Origin: a virus
Strand: one strand, 5' to 3'
IMG/VR virus record: IMGVR_UViG_3300009678_000018
Span: 1-47,355 of that record
Length of the DNA stretch: 47,355 nucleotides
How positions within the stretch are numbered: position 1 is the stretch's first letter; each line of letters begins with the position of its first letter. The notes beneath the pieces were generated by a model, which was given only the letters and a program-made list of their open reading frames with translations, was not told the origin of the DNA and ran no database searches. Made by a program: the position numbers and the translations under genes. Below are positions 4,870-45,107 of this stretch, piece after piece.

Positions 4870-7152
4870 GTGACGACGACCACGCCGGCTCCGCGCTCCT
4901 CCCCCACCGGAGCGGCGCCCGCCGCAACCGATTACCAGAGCGACGCGGCACAAGCGTTGATGGAGCGGTGTCTCCAGCAGGCGCGGAACGATAGTGCGCG
5001 CAAAGCGCGCGATCGCGCGGACTGGTGGAACCTGCTGATGTACCGCGGCGGTGAGAACCAGTGGAAGGTCTGGGACCGTGCGACCGAGCGGTACGTCGAC
5101 CGCGGCACGGACCCAGCGACCGGCGGCATTCCCGCGCACGTCCCCCGCTGCTGCACCAATCACTTCGCCGTCAAGATCGACGGCATCGCCGCCATCCTCG
5201 ACCAGACGTCGCCGGCGAAAGAGTGTGGACCTGGCGCGGCTGAGGATCGCGATCGCGCCGCGGCCGAAGTCGCGAACGACGCGCTGCCGGTGCTCTTCGA
5301 GGAAATCGGCTACGAGGACGACCGGTCGCAGATTCACAAGCTCGTCACGCTCACCGACCGTGTCGGCTATGTCCTGTACTGCGACAACGACGAGAAGTAC
5401 GGGACCGACCACATTCCCGCGCTGCAGTGCCAGGCGTGCGGAGAGTTCGCCGGGCCGGCAGAGCTGACGGACGACGACACGTGCCCGCACTGCGGCAAGG
5501 GCCCGATGGTGCCCGCGCAGCATCCGCAGACGGGCGAGCTCCTTGCCTACGAATATCCGAAAGGCCGGCTCTGCGGCAGCATCGCGACGAGCTTCGAGCT
5601 CTCGACGCCGCCCAACTCACGCACGACCGACACGCGCAAGCTGCCGTGGGTCTTGCGCCACCGCCGCACGCCGCGCGAGGAAGTGCTCGCCCGCTGGCCC
5701 GAGCTCCGCGAGAAGCTCACCGACGAGGGCACGAACGATCAGAACAACGCCGCGGGCGCCATGTACGCCGATGCGCTCGCCGGCCTGGTGGCGCCGCTCG
5801 GCAACGACGGGCGGCCCGCCGGCGCGTCGGGCTTGTGGGTCGCCGAGCTCTGGCACGACCCGATCGACGACGGCGAGCTGAAGTTTCCGCAAGGCCTGTA
5901 TCGCGTGATGGTGGGGGACCACGTCGCGCACTCCGGCCCGCTCGAGTACGTCGACGACGACGGCCGCCCGTTCAAGAACGTCCTCATTCGCACCTTCGCG
6001 ACGGCGCCCGGCGGCGGCGGCAAGCCGCCCGGGGACGACCTCGCGCCGATCCAGGTGCAGCATAACGTCGTCGAGAGCTTGATCGACCTGGCGACGATGA
6101 ACTACGCCGCCGGGAAAGACTACATCCCGCTCTCGGTCACCCTCATCGACGAGCCGACCGGCGCCCCCGGCGAGCGCATCCGCTACAAGTCGAACATCCC
6201 CGGCGAAGTCCCGACACACGTTGAGGGTAAGTCGCCGGCGGCCGGGCTCTTCGAACGCTTGAAGCAGCTCGAGGAAGCGATGGACTCGGTCTCGCGCCTC
6301 AACGCGGTCCTCGCCGGCGAGCGCCCTGAGGGTGATCCGACGCTGGGCGAAGTGCAACGGTTGGACGAGAACGGCATGCGCGCGTTCCGCGCCCCGCTCG
6401 ACGAGCTCGTGCGCTGGGAGAAGCAGGCCGCGCTCATGTGCCTGCGCATCGCGCGGCAGACGTCGTGGTCGGAGCGCTTCGCCGTCATCCGAGGCGAAAA
6501 CGGCGGTTGGGAAGTGGACGCGTTCATCGGCGCCGACCTCGATGGGCGCGTCGACATCTTCATCGATAAGGCGTCGGCCTGGCCGAAGTCGCCCATGCTT
6601 GAGTCGCTCCGTCTCAAAGAAGGCTTCGAGACGGGCCTCCTGCCGTCGCCGGCCGCGGCCGATCCCGAGCTCGCCGGCAAGCTCCTGTCCGCGCTCGACC
6701 TGGCGAAGTTCAAGCCGTCGCTCGATGGCGTGAAGAAGCACATCGCGCGCGAGCTCGACCGCTGGAAGAAGGCCACCGACCCGGCCGAGATCACGCCGCC
6801 GGATCCACTCATCCTCGGACCGCAGGCGATGGCGCTGCACCTGGCGCTCAAGCGCGCGTTCATGGTGACGGAAGAAGCCGAAGCGATGGCGGCGGACCCG
6901 GCGCGTCAGCCGGTCTACATGGCGATGCGCGCGCACCTCGAGCAGCTCCAACTGCTCTTGACGCCGCAACCGATGCCGGCGCCGGGCGACGGCGACGTGC
7001 TCGGCCAGGCCGTCGCGTCCGGCGCGCTGAAGCCGGTCAGTGAAGACAAAGGCTCGAATGTGGGCGAGCTGGTGCGAAGTGGCGCGTTGCGCCCCGCGCC
7101 GGACCCGCCCGCCGCTCAAGGGACGGCGCGACCCGCGCGAGGCGTGCATTGA
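4870..7152 (+). CDS. Portal protein (putative), with a CxxC...CxxC insertion
   Basis: 760 aa, GTG start, located between terminase and scaffold/capsid genes. The size suits a podovirus portal. The call rests on position and size only. Confidence 0.6.
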   Translation: MTTTTPAPRSSPTGAAPAATDYQSDAAQALMERCLQQARNDSARKARDRADWWNLLMYRGGENQWKVWDRATERYVDRGTDPATGGIPAHVPRCCTNHFAVKIDGIAAILDQTSPAKECGPGAAEDRDRAAAEVANDALPVLFEEIGYEDDRSQIHKLVTLTDRVGYVLYCDNDEKYGTDHIPALQCQACGEFAGPAELTDDDTCPHCGKGPMVPAQHPQTGELLAYEYPKGRLCGSIATSFELSTPPNSRTTDTRKLPWVLRHRRTPREEVLARWPELREKLTDEGTNDQNNAAGAMYADALAGLVAPLGNDGRPAGASGLWVAELWHDPIDDGELKFPQGLYRVMVGDHVAHSGPLEYVDDDGRPFKNVLIRTFATAPGGGGKPPGDDLAPIQVQHNVVESLIDLATMNYAAGKDYIPLSVTLIDEPTGAPGERIRYKSNIPGEVPTHVEGKSPAAGLFERLKQLEEAMDSVSRLNAVLAGERPEGDPTLGEVQRLDENGMRAFRAPLDELVRWEKQAALMCLRIARQTSWSERFAVIRGENGGWEVDAFIGADLDGRVDIFIDKASAWPKSPMLESLRLKEGFETGLLPSPAAADPELAGKLLSALDLAKFKPSLDGVKKHIARELDRWKKATDPAEITPPDPLILGPQAMALHLALKRAFMVTEEAEAMAADPARQPVYMAMRAHLEQLQLLLTPQPMPAPGDGDVLGQAVASGALKPVSEDKGSNVGELVRSGALRPAPDPPAAQGTARPARGVH

Positions 7153-36295: not shown

Positions 36296-37402
36296 TCACG
36301 ATTGCCTCGATTTCTGACGGGTCTTTCTCGACTGTAAAGCCCGCGGCACGGCGACCCCCTCGCCAATCCGCTCCACGGCCGCCACTTTGGCGGCATCGGC
36401 CGGATGCACGTAGCGCTCGAGCATGCGCAGCGAGCTCCACCCGCCGAGGACCTGCAACGTCCGCAGATCGACCCCCGCCTCCATCAACCGCGTCGCGCCG
36501 GTGTGGCGTAATCCGTGGAAGGTGATCCCGCCCGCCAGGCGGCCGTAGGCGAGGCGCGCACGCGTGCACCCGTCCTCCAGCATCTGTTTCAGGGAATTCG
36601 TCTGCAGGCGGGGCGTCGAGGCTTTCCGCCGATGCGCAAAGATGTACCGGCCGCGGCGTCGGAGCCTGTCGAGGGCCGCGCGCAGCCGCGACGAAATCGG
36701 CACGCGGTACGCGGTCCCTGTCTTCGGCTGCACGACGGTCAGGTACGTCCCGTGGTCATGCGCCCACTCGAGCCGCAGCAGGTCGCCGGCGCGCATCAAC
36801 GTGTCGAGCGCGGCGATCACGAGCACTTGGTCGCGCCGTTCGAGGACGGCGAGCAGCCGCGTTTCATCGTCGCGCGACAGCACGGCGGGCTCGCGCGTCG
36901 GCGCCGCCGGCAGCCGCTTCAACCCCTCGAGCGGATTGCGCGCGAGGTACGTCGGCACCGCTTCGCCGAGCGCGTGCTTGAGCACGTCGACCTCGCGATT
37001 GACGGTGGCGGCCGCGACCTGGCCGCGGCGCATCGTGCGCCATTCGAGCACACGTTCGCGCGTGAGTTCGGCGAGCGGCCACTTCCCCACGCCCGCGCGC
37101 AGCGCGGCGAGGATCTCACGCTCGCGCGCGGCGCCGCGCTTGTGCGTGGTGACGTGCTGCTCATACCACGCGAGAAACGCCGACGTCTGGATCGTCGGCT
37201 TCGGGCCGGCGCCGGCGAGCCCGAGTACGCGCTCGGCCTGGCTTTGCCGAAACAGGGTCTCGGCCGACGCCTTCAGCTTGAGCCGTTGCGTGGCGGTGTC
37301 CGCGTCGTGATGAATCTTCGTGCTCTGTTGGACGACCGGCCGGCCGGGTGGCGTGAGCGTCATCCACCAATAGGGTGAACCGCTCCGGCGATAGATGCCC
37401 AT
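36296..37402 (-). CDS. int: Tyrosine recombinase / phage integrase
   Basis: Start at MGIYRRSGSPYWW (ATG 37402, ATGA overlap with the upstream gene). C-terminal HGLRHTGATRL...LGGWSSLRMLERYVH supplies the R-H-R-Y catalytic signature. Confidence 0.9.
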   Translation of the reverse strand: MGIYRRSGSPYWWMTLTPPGRPVVQQSTKIHHDADTATQRLKLKASAETLFRQSQAERVLGLAGAGPKPTIQTSAFLAWYEQHVTTHKRGAAREREILAALRAGVGKWPLAELTRERVLEWRTMRRGQVAAATVNREVDVLKHALGEAVPTYLARNPLEGLKRLPAAPTREPAVLSRDDETRLLAVLERRDQVLVIAALDTLMRAGDLLRLEWAHDHGTYLTVVQPKTGTAYRVPISSRLRAALDRLRRRGRYIFAHRRKASTPRLQTNSLKQMLEDGCTRARLAYGRLAGGITFHGLRHTGATRLMEAGVDLRTLQVLGGWSSLRMLERYVHPADAAKVAAVERIGEGVAVPRALQSRKTRQKSRQS

Positions 37403-37584
37403 CAACCCTTGCGGGCGAGCTTCACAGCGATGATCAGCCCCACGAGGATCGGTAGCCAGCGGACCACTCGTCGCACCACCGTCCGGGCCGCATCTGCATC
37501 GTCCTGGGTTGCCCAAACGATAACGCCGCTGACAAGAAGGCCAACGAGCACGCCAGGTATCCAGACACGCGGATTTAGGGTCAC
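37402..37584 (-). CDS. Small two-TM membrane protein translationally coupled to int
   Basis: GTG 37584 is preceded by GAGAGGTGA. Translation is VTLNPRVWIPGVLVGLLVSGVIVW...WLPILVGLIIAVKL. The track ORF extends to 37632. Confidence 0.45.
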   Translation of the reverse strand: MTLNPRVWIPGVLVGLLVSGVIVWATQDDADAARTVVRRVVRWLPILVGLIIAVKLARKG

Positions 37585-37713: not shown

Positions 37714-38067
37714 TCATGAGCTTGCGCGTCGAACCTTGCCGGGGCGCGGTTCCCGGAGTGCCTTCGGTGGCGACTCGGTCGCGTCGTCGTGCGTTGTCGC
37801 CCACTCCTGCCGTTCGATCGCCAGGAGGTCAACGAGCTCCTGTACCGTGACGTTGCCGTAGAGGCGGGCAAGCCGCCAGAGCACCGCGGGATCGGGAAAC
37901 TGAACGCGGCCCGCCTCGTAGCGCGAGAGTTGCGCCTGGCTGAAGCCGTTGAAGATCGGCCCTGTTTGGATCACTTTCGCGACAACCTGCCCCATCGTGA
38001 ATCCGCGGTCTTCACGGGCGCGGGCGAGACGTGCCCCGAACTTTGGAGTAATGACCGGCCGCGCCAT
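37714..38067 (-). CDS. CI-like repressor (XRE-family HTH, no S24 peptidase domain)
   Basis: ARLARAREDRGFTMGQVVAKV...FSQAQLSRYEAGRVQFPDPAVLWRLARLYG is a typical HTH_3 pattern. It is divergent from a Cro-like gene. Alternative ATG at 38097. Confidence 0.7.
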   Translation of the reverse strand: MARPVITPKFGARLARAREDRGFTMGQVVAKVIQTGPIFNGFSQAQLSRYEAGRVQFPDPAVLWRLARLYGNVTVQELVDLLAIERQEWATTHDDATESPPKALREPRPGKVRRASS

Positions 38068-38161
38068 GCCCCCACAGCTTAAAGCCTGAAGCGCCATGAT
38101 GGCTGACTGCGGCTGAAAAAGACTTGACTTGGAATCTGGTTTAAGAATATGGTTTTTTGTC
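38068..38161. promoter_or_regulatory. Divergent immunity promoter/operator region
   Basis: AT-rich gap between divergent HTH genes. TTGACT (38124-38129), 18 nt, TATGGT faces the Cro-like gene. Confidence 0.45.
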
Positions 38162-38389
38162 ATGGGCGTTCGGTACAACACAGATCGCATGGAAGCCGAC
38201 GCGAAATCCCTCGGCTATTCAGACACCGAGCTCGCGAGCGTCGCTGGCATCGCACAGGTCACCGTCTCGCGAATCTTCCGCGGTCAACAGCCCGCGCCAC
38301 GCACCGCCAAGAAGATCGCCAGCGCGCTCGGCAAGCAACTCCGACGCTACGTCGTCACTGAAACCGAACCACCGGCGGTCTCCCAATGA
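38162..38389 (+). CDS. Cro-like XRE-family HTH regulator
   Basis: LGYSDTELASVAGIAQVTVSRIFRGQQ. 75 aa. Divergent from the CI-like gene. Confidence 0.65.
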   Translation: MGVRYNTDRMEADAKSLGYSDTELASVAGIAQVTVSRIFRGQQPAPRTAKKIASALGKQLRRYVVTETEPPAVSQ

Positions 38390-39693: not shown

Positions 39694-40656
39694 GTGCAGA
39701 CACATCCTACACCAACCCCGCCGCTGGCCGCGAAGCGCGTCGTCGCGATCGGCGTGCATGTGCAGCCGGCCTCGCGCCGGCTGTGCGATCGCGCGCTCGC
39801 CGAATTCCGCGCGGGGCTCGGCGCCGCCGCGGCCGCGAACGGCCGGGACCAACTCGACTTCGAGATCACCACGGTCGACGGCAAGACGCGTCGACTGATT
39901 CTCGAAGTCGATCAACCCTCGGTCTTCATCGTGCGCACGCGCGACCACGCGATCGCGCACGCCTACGTCGCCATCGACCGGCACACGCGCGGCCTGGCCG
40001 CCGAGATCGCGAACATCTACGGGCTGCGGTTTGACCGCGAGGGCGAGAGCCTCTACGCCGACACCACGCATTGGGCCGACGTCGCCGATCTCGTGTGGCG
40101 CGCGCTGCAGGGCTGTCTCGCGATCCTCGCCGCGGCCGACTGGCTGCCATCGACACCGGCGTCGACGCGGACGGATTGCTCGATGGCGCAGGCGCTCACC
40201 GCGTCGCTCGAGGCGCGCGCGCTGGTCGTCGCCGGCGAACTGCTCGGCGCGTGCGAGCGCCAAGTGCCCGAGGACGTCGGGCCCGCGTGGCATCGACTGC
40301 GCCGCGCGATCGGTCTCGCGCCGCAGCTCGCGGCCGCTGAGAACCTCCCGGACGTCAAGTTCGGGATGAAGTCTCGGACGGCCTACGAAATCACCGCACG
40401 CGTCGTCTCGGCGGCGCTGCGCAACGCCGACGCGATCGACGCGCTCCGGCACTGGCGCGACGTCGAGGCCGCGGTCCGCGCGCTCTGTGAGACCGAGCGG
40501 CGGTATCACCAGGCGAACGCCAACGCCGCGCGCGACGCCGATCCCGACACCGATCACCCCTGGCCCGACGTCGAGCGCGCGGAGCGCCTCGTGCGCCACG
40601 AGGGCCAGGCCGCCTACTTCACCCCGTTTGCGCTCGGACAGGAGGTCCAGCGATGA
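39694..40656 (+). CDS. Hypothetical protein (320 aa)
   Basis: AAGGAGA precedes GTG 39694. No family recognised. Confidence 0.55.
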   Translation: MQTHPTPTPPLAAKRVVAIGVHVQPASRRLCDRALAEFRAGLGAAAAANGRDQLDFEITTVDGKTRRLILEVDQPSVFIVRTRDHAIAHAYVAIDRHTRGLAAEIANIYGLRFDREGESLYADTTHWADVADLVWRALQGCLAILAAADWLPSTPASTRTDCSMAQALTASLEARALVVAGELLGACERQVPEDVGPAWHRLRRAIGLAPQLAAAENLPDVKFGMKSRTAYEITARVVSAALRNADAIDALRHWRDVEAAVRALCETERRYHQANANAARDADPDTDHPWPDVERAERLVRHEGQAAYFTPFALGQEVQR

Positions 40657-41846
40657 GCATCTTCAAACCCGTCGCCATCGAACAGACCGCCGCGAAGGTC
40701 GGCATCTTCGGCTCGCAGGGCTCTGGCAAAACCACCACGAGCGCGCTGATGCTGATCGGCCTCTCGCTGACGTTCCACAAGGGCGCGCCGGTCTTCATGC
40801 TCGACACCGAGAACGGCAGCGACTACCTCGAGCCGCTGTTTAAGCTCGAGGGCGTGCCCCTCCTCGTCGGCAAGAGCCGCGCGTTCAAGGACATGCGCGC
40901 CGGACTCGGCGAGGCCGAGCACGCCGAGGCCTGCGGGTATCTCGTCGACTCCTACTCACACCCGTGGACGGAGTTGACGGACACGTTCAAGGAGAAATCT
41001 CGCCGCAAGAAGCTCGAGTTTCACCACATGGCCGAGCTCAAGGGCTTGTGGCAACAGTGGACGACGCAGATGCTCAACTCGCCGCTGCACTGCGTGCTGT
41101 CGGGCCGGCTCGGCTACGTGTGGGACCGCGAGGAGGACGACGCGGACGGCGAGAAGGGCGACCTCATCAAGCTCGGCACGAAGATGAAAACCGAGTCCGA
41201 GGCCGGGTACGAGCCGTCGCTGCTGATCGAGATGGAGGGCATTCAGAGCGACGCGGGCCGCGTGAAGAAGACCAAGGCCAAGAAGGGCACGATCGCCCAT
41301 CACGCCTACGTGCTGAAGGACCGGTGGCGCACGCTGAACGGCCGCACCTTCATGTGGCCCGACATGAACACCTACAAGAAGGGCGACTGGAAGAAGGTCT
41401 TCGAGGTCTTCGCGCCGCACTTCAAACAGCTCGCCATCGGGCAGGCGACGACGCAACGCGCAATGGACCCCTCGCGCACGAGCCGCGCGCTGTTCGACGG
41501 TGGCGAGGCGGCCGAGTTCGGTCGGCAGCGTGACATCGCGCTCGAGGAGATCCAGGAGTCGGTCGCCGCGTGCTTCCCCGGACAGACGCGCGAAGAGAAA
41601 CTCCTGCGGCAAACCATCCTCGAGGCGCTCGTCGGCACGTTGTCGTGGACGAAGGTCACGACGATGCCGCTCGCCGAGCTCCAGCTTGCGAGTGCGACGG
41701 TGCAGGAGTTTCGTCGACAGGCCAGCGAGTCGCGCGATCGGGCCACCAACCCCGCGGGCGTCCTCGACCTCCTGAAGGTCTCCAGCGAGCTCGTCAATGC
41801 CCGCCGTGCGGCGCTCGACTTCGAGGCCGAGGGGGTGCCGCTCTAA
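40653..41846 (+). CDS. P-loop ATPase (AAA_24 / RecA-like phage NTPase) with a C-terminal extension
   Basis: GGAGG, then ATG 40653 (ATGA overlap). Walker A is GSQGSGKTT, and Walker B-like segments are VFMLDTE and YLVDSYS. Confidence 0.6.
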   Translation: MSIFKPVAIEQTAAKVGIFGSQGSGKTTTSALMLIGLSLTFHKGAPVFMLDTENGSDYLEPLFKLEGVPLLVGKSRAFKDMRAGLGEAEHAEACGYLVDSYSHPWTELTDTFKEKSRRKKLEFHHMAELKGLWQQWTTQMLNSPLHCVLSGRLGYVWDREEDDADGEKGDLIKLGTKMKTESEAGYEPSLLIEMEGIQSDAGRVKKTKAKKGTIAHHAYVLKDRWRTLNGRTFMWPDMNTYKKGDWKKVFEVFAPHFKQLAIGQATTQRAMDPSRTSRALFDGGEAAEFGRQRDIALEEIQESVAACFPGQTREEKLLRQTILEALVGTLSWTKVTTMPLAELQLASATVQEFRRQASESRDRATNPAGVLDLLKVSSELVNARRAALDFEAEGVPL

Positions 41847-41847
41847 C

Positions 41848-42594
41848 ATGGCCGGTCCGCGTCTCACCCGCCTCGCGTCCGATATCGGCCCGTTTGTCAT
41901 TGTGCCCGACTGGATTCTCCGGTCGGGCATCAGTGACCGGGGCGTGCGGCTGTTCGCCGTGTTGGCGCGCTATGCCGATCGGGCGGGGGAGGCGTTTCCG
42001 AGTCGCCGGCAACTGACGACCGACCTGCTGGCGTCTGCGGCGTCCATTGATCGGGCCACGAAGGAGCTCATCGACATCGGCGCGCTCGACGTCCAAGCGC
42101 GCTTCGACCACAACGGCGATCAGACCTCAAACCTGTACATCGTGCGGTACGCAAAACCAGCGGGGGGGTCGTCAGACCCGCAGCCCCCCCTCCTCACTGG
42201 TGACGAGGGGGGTCCTCACCCGAGCAACGGGGGGGTCATCACCAGTGAGGAGGGGGGCTCTGCACCCGTGATGCCCCCCCTCATCACGAGTGGGACCACC
42301 CCCTCATCACCGGTGACGAACGGAACTAGATCCACGTTAACTAGATCAGATCAAGATCAAGAGCAGCGCGCGTCCGCGCGCCCCGTTCACGTAAACACCA
42401 AAGGGCACAACCCCAGAGCCCTCATCAAGCTCGTGCACCTGGTGCTCGACGACATCGAGGCCGGACGCATCCACGAGCTCGACAAGAACGAAGAGCTCAA
42501 GCTGCGCGCCGCCCGCGCGCGCCTGACCTACGACATCGACAAACTCGGCAAGGCCGAACGCGCCGCCCGCGCGCGCAGGAAGAAGCGCGCATGA
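41848..42594 (+). CDS. Replication initiator-like wHTH protein (lambda O-like organisation)
   Basis: FVIVPDWILRSGISDRGVRLFAVLARYADRAGEAFPSRRQLTTDLLASAASIDRATKELIDIGAL resembles an HTH_36/replication-protein N-terminus. The repeat array is encoded in its central linker. Confidence 0.6.
   Translation: MAGPRLTRLASDIGPFVIVPDWILRSGISDRGVRLFAVLARYADRAGEAFPSRRQLTTDLLASAASIDRATKELIDIGALDVQARFDHNGDQTSNLYIVRYAKPAGGSSDPQPPLLTGDEGGPHPSNGGVITSEEGGSAPVMPPLITSGTTPSSPVTNGTRSTLTRSDQDQEQRASARPVHVNTKGHNPRALIKLVHLVLDDIEAGRIHELDKNEELKLRAARARLTYDIDKLGKAERAARARRKKRA
42162..42360 (+). repeat. ori: Putative origin of replication: seven iteron-like units of about 22-23 bp plus an AT-rich GATC cluster
   Basis: Units start at 42162, 42184, 42207, 42229, 42252, 42274 and 42299. 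Each is a G- or C-homopolymer (5-7 nt) followed by TCNTCAC-like. After them comes ggaactagatccacgttaactagatcagatcaagatcaag, with 4 GATC sites in 42329-42358. Confidence 0.65.
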
Positions 42595-42809
42595 CGGTCC
42601 TGACCACGACCTGCCCGGCGTATCAGTGCGACGGCACCGGCTGGCGCCGGTTCGAGTCGCTTGCCGGCGTCCCGCGCGTGACGCGCTGTGCCTGCTGGCG
42701 CCGGGCGCATCCCGTGGCGCCGCCGCCCACGCGCAAGACGAAGAAGACCGCCCCTCGCCCGAGGCCCGTGCGCGACGGGCGCGCCGCGGCCGCGGGTCTG
42801 TCCGACTAG
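42591..42809 (+). CDS. Small zinc-finger-like protein
   Basis: ATGA overlap. CPAYQCDGTGW...VTRCACW. Confidence 0.45.
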   Translation: MTVLTTTCPAYQCDGTGWRRFESLAGVPRVTRCACWRRAHPVAPPPTRKTKKTAPRPRPVRDGRAAAAGLSD

Positions 42810-42817
42810 GAGATCCC

Positions 42818-44317
42818 ATGCCCCGCCGCGCCGTCACCACCGCGAACGAAGTGCCGCCGATGCCCCCGATCACGACACATGCCCTCGAGGCGAGCTGGCT
42901 CGACATTGACAGCATCATCGCGAGTCCCCTCAATCCCCGGAAGCCCCACGCGGGCGACGATACGGATCTGGACGGCCTCGAGGCGTCGATCCGGCAGCAC
43001 GGCGTCTTGCAGCCGATCGTCGTCCGCGTCTCTCTGTTCGAGCCCGGGAAATACGAACTCGTCGCCGGCAGCCGGCGCCACGCCGCCACGAAGCGCGCCG
43101 GCCTCGAGACGATCCCGGCGACGGTGCGCGCCGTCACCGACGCGCAGCTCCTCGAGCTCGCGCTCACCGAGAACATCCAGCGCAAGAACATGCACCCGCT
43201 CGACGAAGCGAAGGCGCTCGATCGACTCCGCACGCTCGATCGCATCTACGCCGACGACAAGGTGCTCGCCGGCAAGATCGGCCGCTCCGAGACCTACGTG
43301 CGCGATCGGCTGAAGCTGCTCAAACTCGAGCCGGTCGTGCTCGAGGCGCTCGACGTCGACGCGATCACCGCGAAGCACGCCGAGCGCATCGCGCGACTGC
43401 CCAAGGATCAGCACATCGCGGCCCTGGCGGCGTGTTTCGGCGCGCTCTACAACGCGAGGAAGTCCATCGAGAAGCAGATCGACGACAAGGAGTGGGCAGA
43501 GCTCGCGCTCGACCTCGTGAAGCTCAGCCAATTCGATGAGTGGGTCGAGGACCACACCAAGGTCGACATCGACGATCCCGCTGTTCGAAAACAGCTCAAG
43601 CTCGAGCCGGTCGCGGAGCAGCGCACCGAGGCGGACGACCAGGCCGACATCGACGCGGCCGCCGTCGTGCGCCTGCAGTTGTCGGACGACGGGTATCTCG
43701 ACCGAGACACCGCGAGGGCGATGAACGTCATCCCGTCGACCGCGTGGAAGGAAGTCAAGAGCGAGAAGAACCGCTGCGAATACACGCGCGCGGCCGTCGT
43801 TGTCCACGGCGGCAAACTCCGGACGCTCGACGCCTGCACGCGCCGTTCGTGCTCGAAGCACTTCCCGAAGCCCCGGGCGACCAGCTCGGGCCGGTCGGCG
43901 CCCGCGAACGACTACAAGGCCGAGCAGGAGAAGTGTGAGAAGCGCGCTGCCGAGTGGAAGCGGGTGCGGGGCCGGTACTTCGCGGCGCTCGCCGAGCACG
44001 TCGAGCTCAAGTTCACGAAGCTCACGGCGGCCATTGTCAGAAACGCCGTCGCCCAGTGGGAGAGGAACTTCATCGCGAAGGAGTACGGCGTCGCCCTGAC
44101 GGACAAGACCGCTTTGACGGTGCTGGTGCTCTCCCTGCCCCGAACGAGCGAGCTTCAGTTCTTCGGCCCCGACGCGAAGAAGCTCGGCCTCAACGTCGAC
44201 GCGGTGACGAAGGCGATCGCGGCCGAGGACGCGGCCGCAGCGAAGGCGGCCGCCAAGACCGACACGCAAGCCAAGACGCCGGCGCCGGCGAAGAAGAAGG
44301 GCAAGGCCAAGAAGTGA
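42818..44317 (+). CDS. parB: ParB/Spo0J-like protein
   Basis: GGAGATCCC precedes ATG 42818. Matches include LNPRK, GVLQPIVVR, YELVAGSRRHAATKRAG (arginine patch), LTENIQRKNMHPLDEAKAL and the HTH LAGKIGRSETYVRDRLKLLKL. Lys/Ala-rich tail. Confidence 0.8.
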   Translation: MPRRAVTTANEVPPMPPITTHALEASWLDIDSIIASPLNPRKPHAGDDTDLDGLEASIRQHGVLQPIVVRVSLFEPGKYELVAGSRRHAATKRAGLETIPATVRAVTDAQLLELALTENIQRKNMHPLDEAKALDRLRTLDRIYADDKVLAGKIGRSETYVRDRLKLLKLEPVVLEALDVDAITAKHAERIARLPKDQHIAALAACFGALYNARKSIEKQIDDKEWAELALDLVKLSQFDEWVEDHTKVDIDDPAVRKQLKLEPVAEQRTEADDQADIDAAAVVRLQLSDDGYLDRDTARAMNVIPSTAWKEVKSEKNRCEYTRAAVVVHGGKLRTLDACTRRSCSKHFPKPRATSSGRSAPANDYKAEQEKCEKRAAEWKRVRGRYFAALAEHVELKFTKLTAAIVRNAVAQWERNFIAKEYGVALTDKTALTVLVLSLPRTSELQFFGPDAKKLGLNVDAVTKAIAAEDAAAAKAAAKTDTQAKTPAPAKKKGKAKK

Positions 44318-44505
44318 GCCGGCGTTTCATTCGCTACGTCGAGTGTTGGGCCTGTGGGCGCCGAATCTCATGCGACGCCTTCGGCCGTGCCCGCCTTCAT
44401 GGTCCAAAGGGTCGGCACTGCCTCGGCTCGAACACGAACCCGCCCGCCGGGCGTCGGTATGACCTCGCGAGCGGTCGGGTCATCGAGATCGGCGGCAATA
44501 AGTGA
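44314..44505 (+). CDS. Small Cys/His-rich protein
   Basis: GTGA overlap. VECWACGRRISC....HGPKGRHCLG. Confidence 0.4.
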   Translation: MSRRFIRYVECWACGRRISCDAFGRARLHGPKGRHCLGSNTNPPAGRRYDLASGRVIEIGGNK

Positions 44506-45107
44506 AACTGGCCGCCCGCGCCGCGCATTGGATGGCGACGTTCTCGGACAACGAGGCGGCCTGGCCGCGCGTGGTGTTCGAGCGCGGGCGGCCGGTGATC
44601 TACGCGACCTGGCTCACCGGCGGCGACTACCGCAACGCCGCCGCGAGCCGCGGGTTCTACGGCGCGTACCCGAGGGGCTATCTCGAGCGCGTCGCGGCTT
44701 TTTTCCCAGACGTCCGCGACGGCATTCTTCACGCCTTCTCGGGGTCACTGCCGACCAGTCCTGTCTACGTTCGGCTCGATACCCGCGAAGCCTGCACGCC
44801 CGACGTCGTCGGCAGCGTGTATGACGTCGCCGCGTTGTTCCGGCCGTTCCGTTTCAAGCTCATCTATGCGGACCCCCCGTACTCGGCGGCTGATGCCGAG
44901 CGCTACGGGACCGCCGGCGTCGATCGGCTCCGCGCCACGCGCGCGCTCGCCGAGGTGACGGTCAAGGGCGGGCATCTGGTGTGGCTAGACACCTGTTGGC
45001 CGCAATTCGACAAGACGCAGTGGACGACGGTCATGCGGATCACGCTGATCCGCTCCTGCAATCACCGCGTGCGGTTGGTCTCGGTCTTCGAGCGGGGGGC
45101 CGCGTAA
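44502..45107 (+). CDS. DNA methyltransferase (DPPY motif; N6-adenine or N4-cytosine)
   Basis: GTGA overlap. Motif I-like is HAFSGSL and motif IV is IYADPPYS. 201 aa. Confidence 0.7.
   Translation: MKLAARAAHWMATFSDNEAAWPRVVFERGRPVIYATWLTGGDYRNAAASRGFYGAYPRGYLERVAAFFPDVRDGILHAFSGSLPTSPVYVRLDTREACTPDVVGSVYDVAALFRPFRFKLIYADPPYSAADAERYGTAGVDRLRATRALAEVTVKGGHLVWLDTCWPQFDKTQWTTVMRITLIRSCNHRVRLVSVFERGAA

Follow-up and report, generated by a model that had tools for sequence, protein, structure and literature searches.

A probable iteron-type replication origin inside the initiator gene of an uncultured temperate phage

Introduction

Why would a phage gene that appears to encode a replication initiator carry, in the midst of its reading frame, a dense series of short palindromes separated by runs of G or C? 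The question is raised by IMG/VR virus record IMGVR_UViG_3300009678_000018, whose 47,355 nucleotides (positions 1 to 47,355) were analyzed in full and are referred to here as the window. The contig is metagenomic and belongs to a temperate phage, as seen from an integrase gene at 36296-37516 and a CI-like repressor gene at 37714-38190, both on the minus strand. An original prediction, made from the letters of the DNA alone, had placed a replication origin inside the putative initiator gene at 41848-42594. The present analysis leads to a similar answer: window 42162-42362 is very probably, on sequence grounds, an iteron-class origin from which the phage replicates vegetatively (theta-type), situated inside the gene of the initiator that would bind it. 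The repeats are read as a DNA-level origin because they start in all codon phases, because they fall in a disordered linker of the protein, because some 70 relatives possess arrays of their own, because the repeat core co-varies with a residue of the recognition helix, and because DnaC- and DnaB-like genes neighbor the initiator gene in relatives. That an origin should lie inside the gene of its initiator is a textbook principle.

A palindromic repeat array in the initiator gene

Seven units of 22-23 bp fill window 42162-42320, inside the initiator gene. Each unit combines a 16-bp palindrome, TCNTCAC-NN-GTGANGA, with a run of 5-7 G or C nucleotides (nts), and the seven can be graded as three perfect, one near-perfect and three degenerate:

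42162 to 42190: leading G7, degenerate unit 1 (TCGTCAG-AC-CCGCAGC) and C7 spacer
42191 to 42212: unit 2, perfect palindrome TCCTCAC-TG-GTGACGA, and G6 spacer
42213 to 42235: unit 3, good left half-site TCCTCAC with a degenerate right half, and G7 spacer
42236 to 42257: unit 4, perfect palindrome TCATCAC-CA-GTGAGGA, and G6 spacer
42258 to 42280: unit 5, degenerate CTCTGCAC-CC-GTGATG, and C7 spacer
42281 to 42303: unit 6, near-palindrome TCATCAC-GA-GTGGGAC (two mismatches), and CCACCCCC spacer
42304 to 42319: unit 7, perfect palindrome TCATCAC-CG-GTGACGA

The full palindrome occurs in the window solely at 42191, 42236 and 42304, against 0.12 occurrences expected by chance; the copy with two mismatches lies at 42281, and the degenerate units are at 42169, 42213 and 42258. 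From unit to unit the register is 22, 22, 23, 22, 23 and 23 bp, and Tandem Repeats Finder assigns the array a period of 22. The homopolymers (G7 at 42162-68, C7 at 42184-90, G6 at 42207-12, G7 at 42229-35, G6 at 42252-57, C7 at 42274-80 and C5 at 42299-303) follow one another at 22-25 bp, such that seven of the 60 G or C runs of at least 5 nts in the entire 47-kb window crowd into 140 bp of the array. When run and half-site are searched jointly as SSSSS-TCNTCAC, the window contains 12 matches versus 3.0 expected, a count reached by none of 100 shuffles, and seven of these 12 fall in the array. The seven spaced run-containing units of the original prediction, and the near-perfect palindromes it saw among them, are accordingly real and far above shuffle expectation. 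Its unit motif, a run followed by TC-N-TCAC, fits five of the seven units exactly on the plus strand and fails for the first and fifth, which are degenerate. The alternation of G- and C-tracts that it described is not borne out, the order G,C,G,G,G,C,C being mixed rather than strictly alternating; this mix reflects units in both orientations.

Two further features follow from these inverted arrangements. Unit 2 together with its preceding C7 run makes a 28-bp palindrome. In addition, unit 2 with its C-run and unit 4 with its G-run are 95% reverse complementary over 22 nts (window 42185-42257), which would allow a long hairpin in single-stranded DNA or in the mRNA (z = -4.3 for the DNA fold).

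The units begin in codon phases 0, 1, 2, 1, 2, 1 and 0. Since all three phases are used, the repetition is one of DNA and not of peptide; likewise, a period of 22-23 bp, which is not a multiple of 3, means that a peptide repeat cannot be maintained. GenBank phages contained no nucleotide match to the region, an Rfam scan yielded solely sub-threshold hairpin-like matches (17-28 bits, against gathering scores of 38-100), and a promoter scan of the array region found none.

The initiator and its disordered linker

The gene that houses the array encodes a protein of three parts, whose boundaries frame the repeats:

41848 to 42594, plus strand: initiator gene, 248 residues, with an N-terminal winged helix, a disordered linker and a C-terminal three-helix domain (Pfam HTH_36, PHROG, AlphaFold2)
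41905 to 42147, plus strand: code for the winged-helix DNA-binding domain, residues 20-100, with the recognition helix at residues 64-77 and candidate specificity residue A65 (predicted local distance difference test, pLDDT, >90; co-variation)
42412 to 42591, plus strand: code for the C-terminal helical domain, residues 189-247 (pLDDT ~90)

HTH_36 is the sole Pfam family matched, at 26.1 bits (cut-off 25), and neither Phage_rep_O nor RepA_N (PF06970) was hit in the Pfam search. The protein also matches PHROG 270 and 391, "replication initiation (O-like)", the latter with E = 1e-8; the "O-like" of PHROG 391 names a cluster of remote homology. The AlphaFold2 model, for which 14 homologues were used, is confident for the winged helix (residues 20-100) and for the three-helix domain (residues 189-247), and of low confidence at about residues 110-185, where the pLDDT is mostly below 50. 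The repeats and the AT-rich stretch behind them correspond to residues 105-171, in this predicted disordered linker. The array proper covers residues 105-158, between the two folded domains, just where the original prediction had put it in calling it linker-coding. The Gly/Pro/Ser/Thr-rich linker peptide, it is proposed, exists for the most part because the origin happens to be translated.

As to the fold, the top Foldseek matches of the N-terminal domain (NTD) are 5kbj, 4pql, 4pt7 and 4pta, which are NTDs of staphylococcal RepA_N initiators on iteron DNA, together with 2v79, the NTD of DnaD; the scores are weak (E ~1e-3 to 1e-2, TM ~0.5). A sequence search of the PDB with the family profile gave no match. 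By analogy, the C-terminal domain is presumed to be the recruiter of the host replication machinery.

The same layout in relatives

Homologues were collected by protein search and from IMG/VR loci, contigs of the closest homologues, GenBank phages and one prophage in an actinomycete metagenome-assembled genome (MAG). About 70 distinct relatives share a common plan of 2-7 iterons (mostly 3-5, with a period of ~20-24 bp), succeeded by two or three tandem 11-mers resembling AACTAGAACCA and spaced 14-15 bp apart. Arthrobacter phages, a Bacillus phage and the actinomycete prophage are among them. In most of 26 homologous genes examined, the top-repeated 12-mer family, counted on both strands, maps to residues 95-135, right after the winged helix, and these families again have a period of 22-23 bp and mixed codon phases. 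The original prediction would, by its own account, be undone by a peptide linker that had been duplicated and was not conserved as DNA in relatives; what was found is mixed codon phases and arrays retained in some 70 relatives.

The sequence of the iterons does not track the relatedness of the proteins. The closest full-length homologues, ~50% identical and with the synteny to the upstream AAA_24 gene intact, have other iterons at the same place, GTGGCCCCAC..GGGG or GTAGCCGCAC..TGCGGC. Relatives that share only ~32-33% of residues (counted in the N-terminal two-thirds, in contigs of ~50% guanine-plus-cytosine, GC, content) have iteron DNA nearly the same as that of the window. Thus the iteron of locus L067, GGGGGGG-TCATCAC-CA-GTGACGA-GGGGGG, is one base off window unit 4, and the 16-mer of window unit 7 recurs exactly in L088. 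In relatives with such near-identical iterons the spacers are all G6-7 runs, and in L004 (44% GC) they are all C runs; the uniformity of these spacers indicates that the homopolymers are regular inter-iteron spacers wherever the iteron type matches that of the window.

That the constraint acts on DNA is particularly evident in L006, where the same DNA, TCGTCACCAGTGA, yields VVTSEE from one copy and SSPVTR from the following one. Mean nucleotide identity over 250 related, hence not independent, pairs is 0.74 in the linker (origin), 0.76 in the winged helix and 0.66 in the C-terminal domain; judged by sequence comparison, 0.74 would not be expected of a disordered linker. The 11-mers behave similarly. 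Of 30 representative loci, 22 have two or three copies behind the iterons, and the copies occupy mixed codon phases; where the spacing is 14 bp, the two copies differ in reading frame (TRT.. and ..LEP). When IMG/VR was searched for exact two-copy 11-mers, 61 loci were returned, where the chance expectation for 22 specified bases is, by our own estimate, well below one. Fifty-two of the 61 lie in open reading frames (ORFs) with the family winged helix, and in each the iterons precede the 11-mers; six others are low-GC peptide repeats.

A few loci separate the origin unit from the coding sequence altogether. In L076 (3761-4293), an ORF consisting only of the winged helix stops just before the iterons, leaving the unit in non-coding DNA, and in L089 (about 60-243) and L096 (about 6000-6176) the iteron and 11-mer unit is intergenic, with no family winged helix detected in either locus. 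These three cases suggest a mobile unit and a linker that results simply from translation running through the origin. An SSB-like ORF, recognized by eye, is found ~650 bp downstream of the unit in L096.

Among cultured phages, gene 86 of Arthrobacter phage LiSara (L046, 2474-3418) has about five copies of GGGGTAGGCCCGTCAGCGGGCC, then three of AACTAGAACCACT, in yet another frame, and homologues in Arthrobacter phages Salgado, Laroye, Prairie and Altadena possess the same architecture of iterons and 11-mers. Annotations of the cultured homologues vary between "transcriptional repressor", "HTH DNA binding (domain) protein" and "RepA-like replication initiator". In Bacillus phage IEBH, gp08, annotated as a "DnaD-like helicase loader", contains six iterons (TAGTGTCTCACAGAAAC, TAGTGTCTGAGGGAAAC; L109, 2267-2422) with a period of 20-23 bp; tandem 15-mers TAACAATACTAAT / TAACAATACTAATCT then occur twice, 15 bp apart, and a DnaC-like loader gene comes next. 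The prophage at L108 (1877-6899; MAG Actinomycetes bacterium JAKOUY010000006) has, in order, a UvrD-like helicase, the HTH_36 initiator, an IstB/DnaC-like ATPase and a DnaB-like helicase, its initiator gene containing internal iterons and two copies of GAACAAGACCCC. A scan of a genome collection with the single protein gave no match, and with a smaller alignment gave L108 as the only one; L108 ties the clade to actinomycetes. The gene orders of L108 and IEBH are those of a classic module of initiator, loader and helicase. When the literature was searched for HTH_36 origins and for the 11-mer, nothing relevant to either turned up.

Co-variation of the iteron core with the recognition helix

The iteron core varies from relative to relative, in step with a single residue of the protein. 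The residue that precedes a conserved S-[IV]-D-R-A sequence marks the N-terminus of helix 3, and in the window it is A65. Classified by this residue, the loci distribute as follows:

A, S or P (two K exceptions): TCAY-NN-RTGA core, 17 of 19
D: CCGCA..TGCGG core, 9 of 9
K: GGGACA, GGGTCA or GACAC types, 13 of 13
R: TACTGAC core, 11 of 11

These counts are uncorrected for shared ancestry, and the iteron classes were drawn after seeing the data. The window, with A65, has TCAC-NN-GTGA iterons, like 13 other class-A loci, and its nearest homologues L042 and L043 (both D) and L041 (N) have other iteron cores. Such discordance between protein relatedness and iteron type argues, at the level of sequence, for direct read-out of the core by the initiator.

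The AT-rich segment, its 11-mers and the GATC cluster

Directly behind the array the base composition drops. The lowest-GC 60 bp of the gene, at 42300-42359, has 48% GC, and 42323-62 has 37.5%, tied for third-lowest among 40-bp stretches of a window that averages 67.6%. The principal elements in this segment are:

42324 to 42349, plus strand: two copies of the family-conserved 11-mer, AACTAGATCCA (42324) and AACTAGATCAG (42339), 15 bp apart; proposed unwinding/loading element
42329 to 42362: four GATC sites and 3.5 copies of AGATCA, in the lowest-GC part of the gene

Relative to the family sequence AACTAGAACCA, AACTAGATCCA has one mismatch and AACTAGATCAG three. The direct repeat AACTAGATC is present in two copies, at 42324 and 42339, the GATC sites are at 42329, 42344, 42349 and 42355, and the AGATCA repeats span 42343-62. 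The direct repeat, the four GATC sites and the lowest-GC stretch of the gene all lie after the array, as had been claimed. The 11-mer is conserved across phage hosts of 44-74% GC and across all iteron specificities.

The GATC sites invite the thought that the origin is gated by methylation, as an addition to the origin reading rather than a replacement of it: the 11-mers would have been re-coded to GATC so that the phage's DPPY methyltransferase, or a host enzyme, times firing, in the manner of the GATC-rich 13-mers of Escherichia coli oriC. A single A to T change in each 11-mer copy of the window indeed creates a GATC, a GATCAA duplication comes next, and the methyltransferase gene, a phrog_3816 match of the DPPY type, is 2 kb downstream. 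Against this, the closest relatives (L041-L043) read GGAACTATAACCA..GGAACGAGAACCA at the 11-mers with zero or one GATC nearby, and the cluster is kept neither in them nor in the wider family. Four GATC in 26 bp would be met somewhere in the window with P ~0.25 under random placement; because GATC is also abundant in the window, the cluster alone is not significant. Searches of NCBIfam, Pfam and the PDB gave no clue to the specificity of the methyltransferase. Gating by methylation is, on balance, unlikely. Taken over the whole window, GATC is over-represented, with 337 sites versus 280 +/- 16 in dinucleotide-preserving shuffles, none of 100 of which reached 337.

A broader conjecture concerns the 11-mer itself. 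The tandem AACTAGAACCA-type 11-mer might be a previously unrecognized origin element, recognized either by a portion of the initiator that does not vary, such as the S-[IV]-D-R-A helix, or as a single strand, like the DnaA-trios or the strand bound by plasmid Rep proteins at a DNA unwinding element; its re-coding to GATC here could then put firing under the control of the phage methyltransferase. Taken as a whole, this conjecture is doubtful.

How the origin may work, and what weighs against it

The reading as an iteron origin can be cast as a sequence of steps. N-terminal winged-helix dimers would bind the 16-bp cores TCNTCAC-NN-GTGANGA, with A65 at the start of the recognition helix setting core specificity. 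Four strong and three weak sites, 22-23 bp or about two helical turns apart, would, once bound, form the basis of a phased nucleoprotein complex, with distortion of the DNA as a result. Next to it, the low-GC segment with AACTAGATCCA and AACTAGATCAG would then melt, and the small C-terminal helical domain may recruit the host helicase or primosome.

Several observations weigh against the origin reading. Three of the seven units are degenerate. No loader or helicase gene adjoins the window initiator, and GC skew over the window offers no usable inflection at the array. The segment behind the array is not the most AT-rich of the window, since lower-GC spots exist at 38104-63 and 1704-63. To these are added the weak fold matches of the N-terminal domain and the two reservations attached to the co-variation counts.

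Genomic context

An AAA_24 ATPase gene lies directly upstream, and a 72-residue ORF, a ParB-like gene and the methyltransferase gene follow downstream:

40653 to 41846, plus strand: AAA_24 ATPase gene, synteny with the initiator gene conserved
42591 to 42809: ORF of 72 residues, Cys-containing, overlapping the initiator stop codon (ATGA)
42821 to 44317: ParB-like gene
44502 to 45107: methyltransferase gene

Small ORFs occur at the position of the 72-residue ORF in L041-L043 as well; the window ORF has no family match and shows no resemblance to the N-terminal part of the L108 DnaC-like loader. Among ~14 ORFs scanned in the early and lysogeny regions (36.3-38.2 and 38.2-46.8 kb), no helicase, loader or polymerase was recognized.

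Two other AT-rich spots stand out. At 37% GC, window 38104-38163 ranks second-lowest among the 60-bp stretches. Part of it coincides with the start of the CI-like repressor gene, TTGACT-N17-TAAGAAT lies within it, and it resembles a temperate phage's early promoter/operator region. The lowest-GC 60 bp (30%), at 1704-1763, is an AT-rich patch upstream of the terminase region, and is perhaps a late promoter, cos or pac.

Alternative explanations

Binding of the repeats by the initiator need not mean that replication starts there. Plasmid iterons serve both replication and control, and one might suppose that the sites of the window function mainly in control, through roadblock autorepression, copy-number handcuffing or incompatibility, with the true start located elsewhere, for instance in the AT-rich region at ~38.1 kb. 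The two more AT-rich spots of the window and the uninformative GC skew leave some room for such a division of labor. Yet in ~70 relatives, and irrespective of context, the iterons are closely linked with the AT-rich tandem 11-mers, and the 38.1-kb region, with its promoter-like TTGACT...TAAGAAT, adjoins the CI-like repressor gene. A control-only role is distinctly unlikely.

The nearby ParB-like gene (42821-44317) raises the prospect that the palindromes are parS-type centromere sites, and their 16-bp length and CAC..GTG core would suit a ParB-like protein. In dozens of loci, however, arrays follow the HTH_36 gene where ParB is not detectable within 3 kb (tblastn: two weak matches), and the core co-varies with the recognition helix of the initiator. 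The array is not tied to a ParB gene, and the parS reading was rejected as very improbable.

Equally little credence is earned by the notion that the G/C homopolymers act as non-B DNA (G-quadruplex or i-motif), which the original prediction had entertained, or as slippage tracts that switch initiator expression. What favors it are the seven homopolymers, each of 5-7 nts, and a single strand whose folding is unusually strong (z = -4.3). However, no canonical G4/C4 pattern with loops <=12 nts exists in 42100-42400, and one appears solely if loops of up to 20 nts are allowed; moreover, the strong fold is due to the inverted iteron copies and not to the tracts, and the G-runs are regular spacers in relatives. 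For want of a motif, the G4/i-motif reading was rejected.

Lastly, a duplicated peptide linker devoid of DNA-level function is almost certainly wrong and was rejected on codon phases: the region is translated and its peptides LLTGDE, VITSEE and LITSGT are loosely repeated, but the units use all three phases at a period not divisible by 3, L006 renders its repeat as VVTSEE and SSPVTR, and the elements also occur in the non-coding DNA of L076, L089 and L096.

Implications

With the iteron origin as the preferred reading, the analysis provides a concrete origin candidate for an uncultured temperate phage whose relatives point to actinomycetes. It also supplies a signature, comprising an HTH_36 domain, G-run-spaced iterons and tandem AACTAGAACCA-like 11-mers, that predicts the origin across a large uncharacterized family of phage initiators, and that could improve annotation and furnish origin/initiator pairs for actinobacterial vectors. 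An apparent one-residue iteron code, in which A/S, D, K or R stands before S-I/V-D-R-A, accompanies this signature.

Comparison with known systems

The closest precedent in layout is bacteriophage lambda, where several dyad-symmetric iterons about two turns apart are followed by an AT-rich segment, and where iteron specificity diverges between related phages. The lambda ori is positioned within the O gene (PMC7157519). The window array resembles it in lying between the code for the DNA-binding domain and that for the C-terminal domain, in its dyad-symmetric units and ~two-turn spacing, and in the AT-rich stretch that comes after. The likeness to lambda O/ori, with iterons and then an AT-rich region inside the initiator gene, had been proposed in the original prediction and is supported by the comparison with relatives. 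There are also differences. The window initiator matches HTH_36 only, and not Phage_rep_O; it has seven units versus four, separated by G/C-run spacers, and a conserved tandem 11-mer instead of a plain AT tract. A P-like loader gene is missing after the window initiator, whereas a loader-type gene is present in L108 and IEBH.

By fold, the nearest systems are the RepA_N replicons (pSK41, pTZ2162, pAD1, pCI2000/pNP40) and PLE RepA, since the best matches of the window NTD, with weak scores, are RepA NTD-DNA complexes. Weaver et al. reportedly described, in 2009, RepA_N iterons within the rep coding sequence. A location of the iterons within rep is also documented in PMC4490491. The RepA_N NTD binds semi-palindromic iterons that converge on a poly-A tract, and the C-terminal domain is host-specific (PMC7145576). 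In contrast, the window initiator has no Pfam RepA_N match, its iterons have a 2-nt centre and G/C-run spacers rather than poly-A, and it belongs to a phage, not a plasmid.

Two further comparisons concern gene order and the AT-rich element. In SPP1, G38P binds repeats inside its own gene near an AT-rich region (oriL), and loader and helicase genes come next. This gene order, characteristic of SPP1 G38P/oriL and the DnaD-like replisome organizers, is shared by IEBH and L108; the window, without loader and helicase genes, is likened to them by layout alone. The tandem short AT-rich repeats with GATC beside the initiator sites recall the 13-mers of Escherichia coli oriC, although here the GATC content is specific to the window and not a family trait. 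With Pfam membership in neither group, the window initiator is one that, as far as its sequence can tell, would work like those of the lambda O and RepA_N systems.

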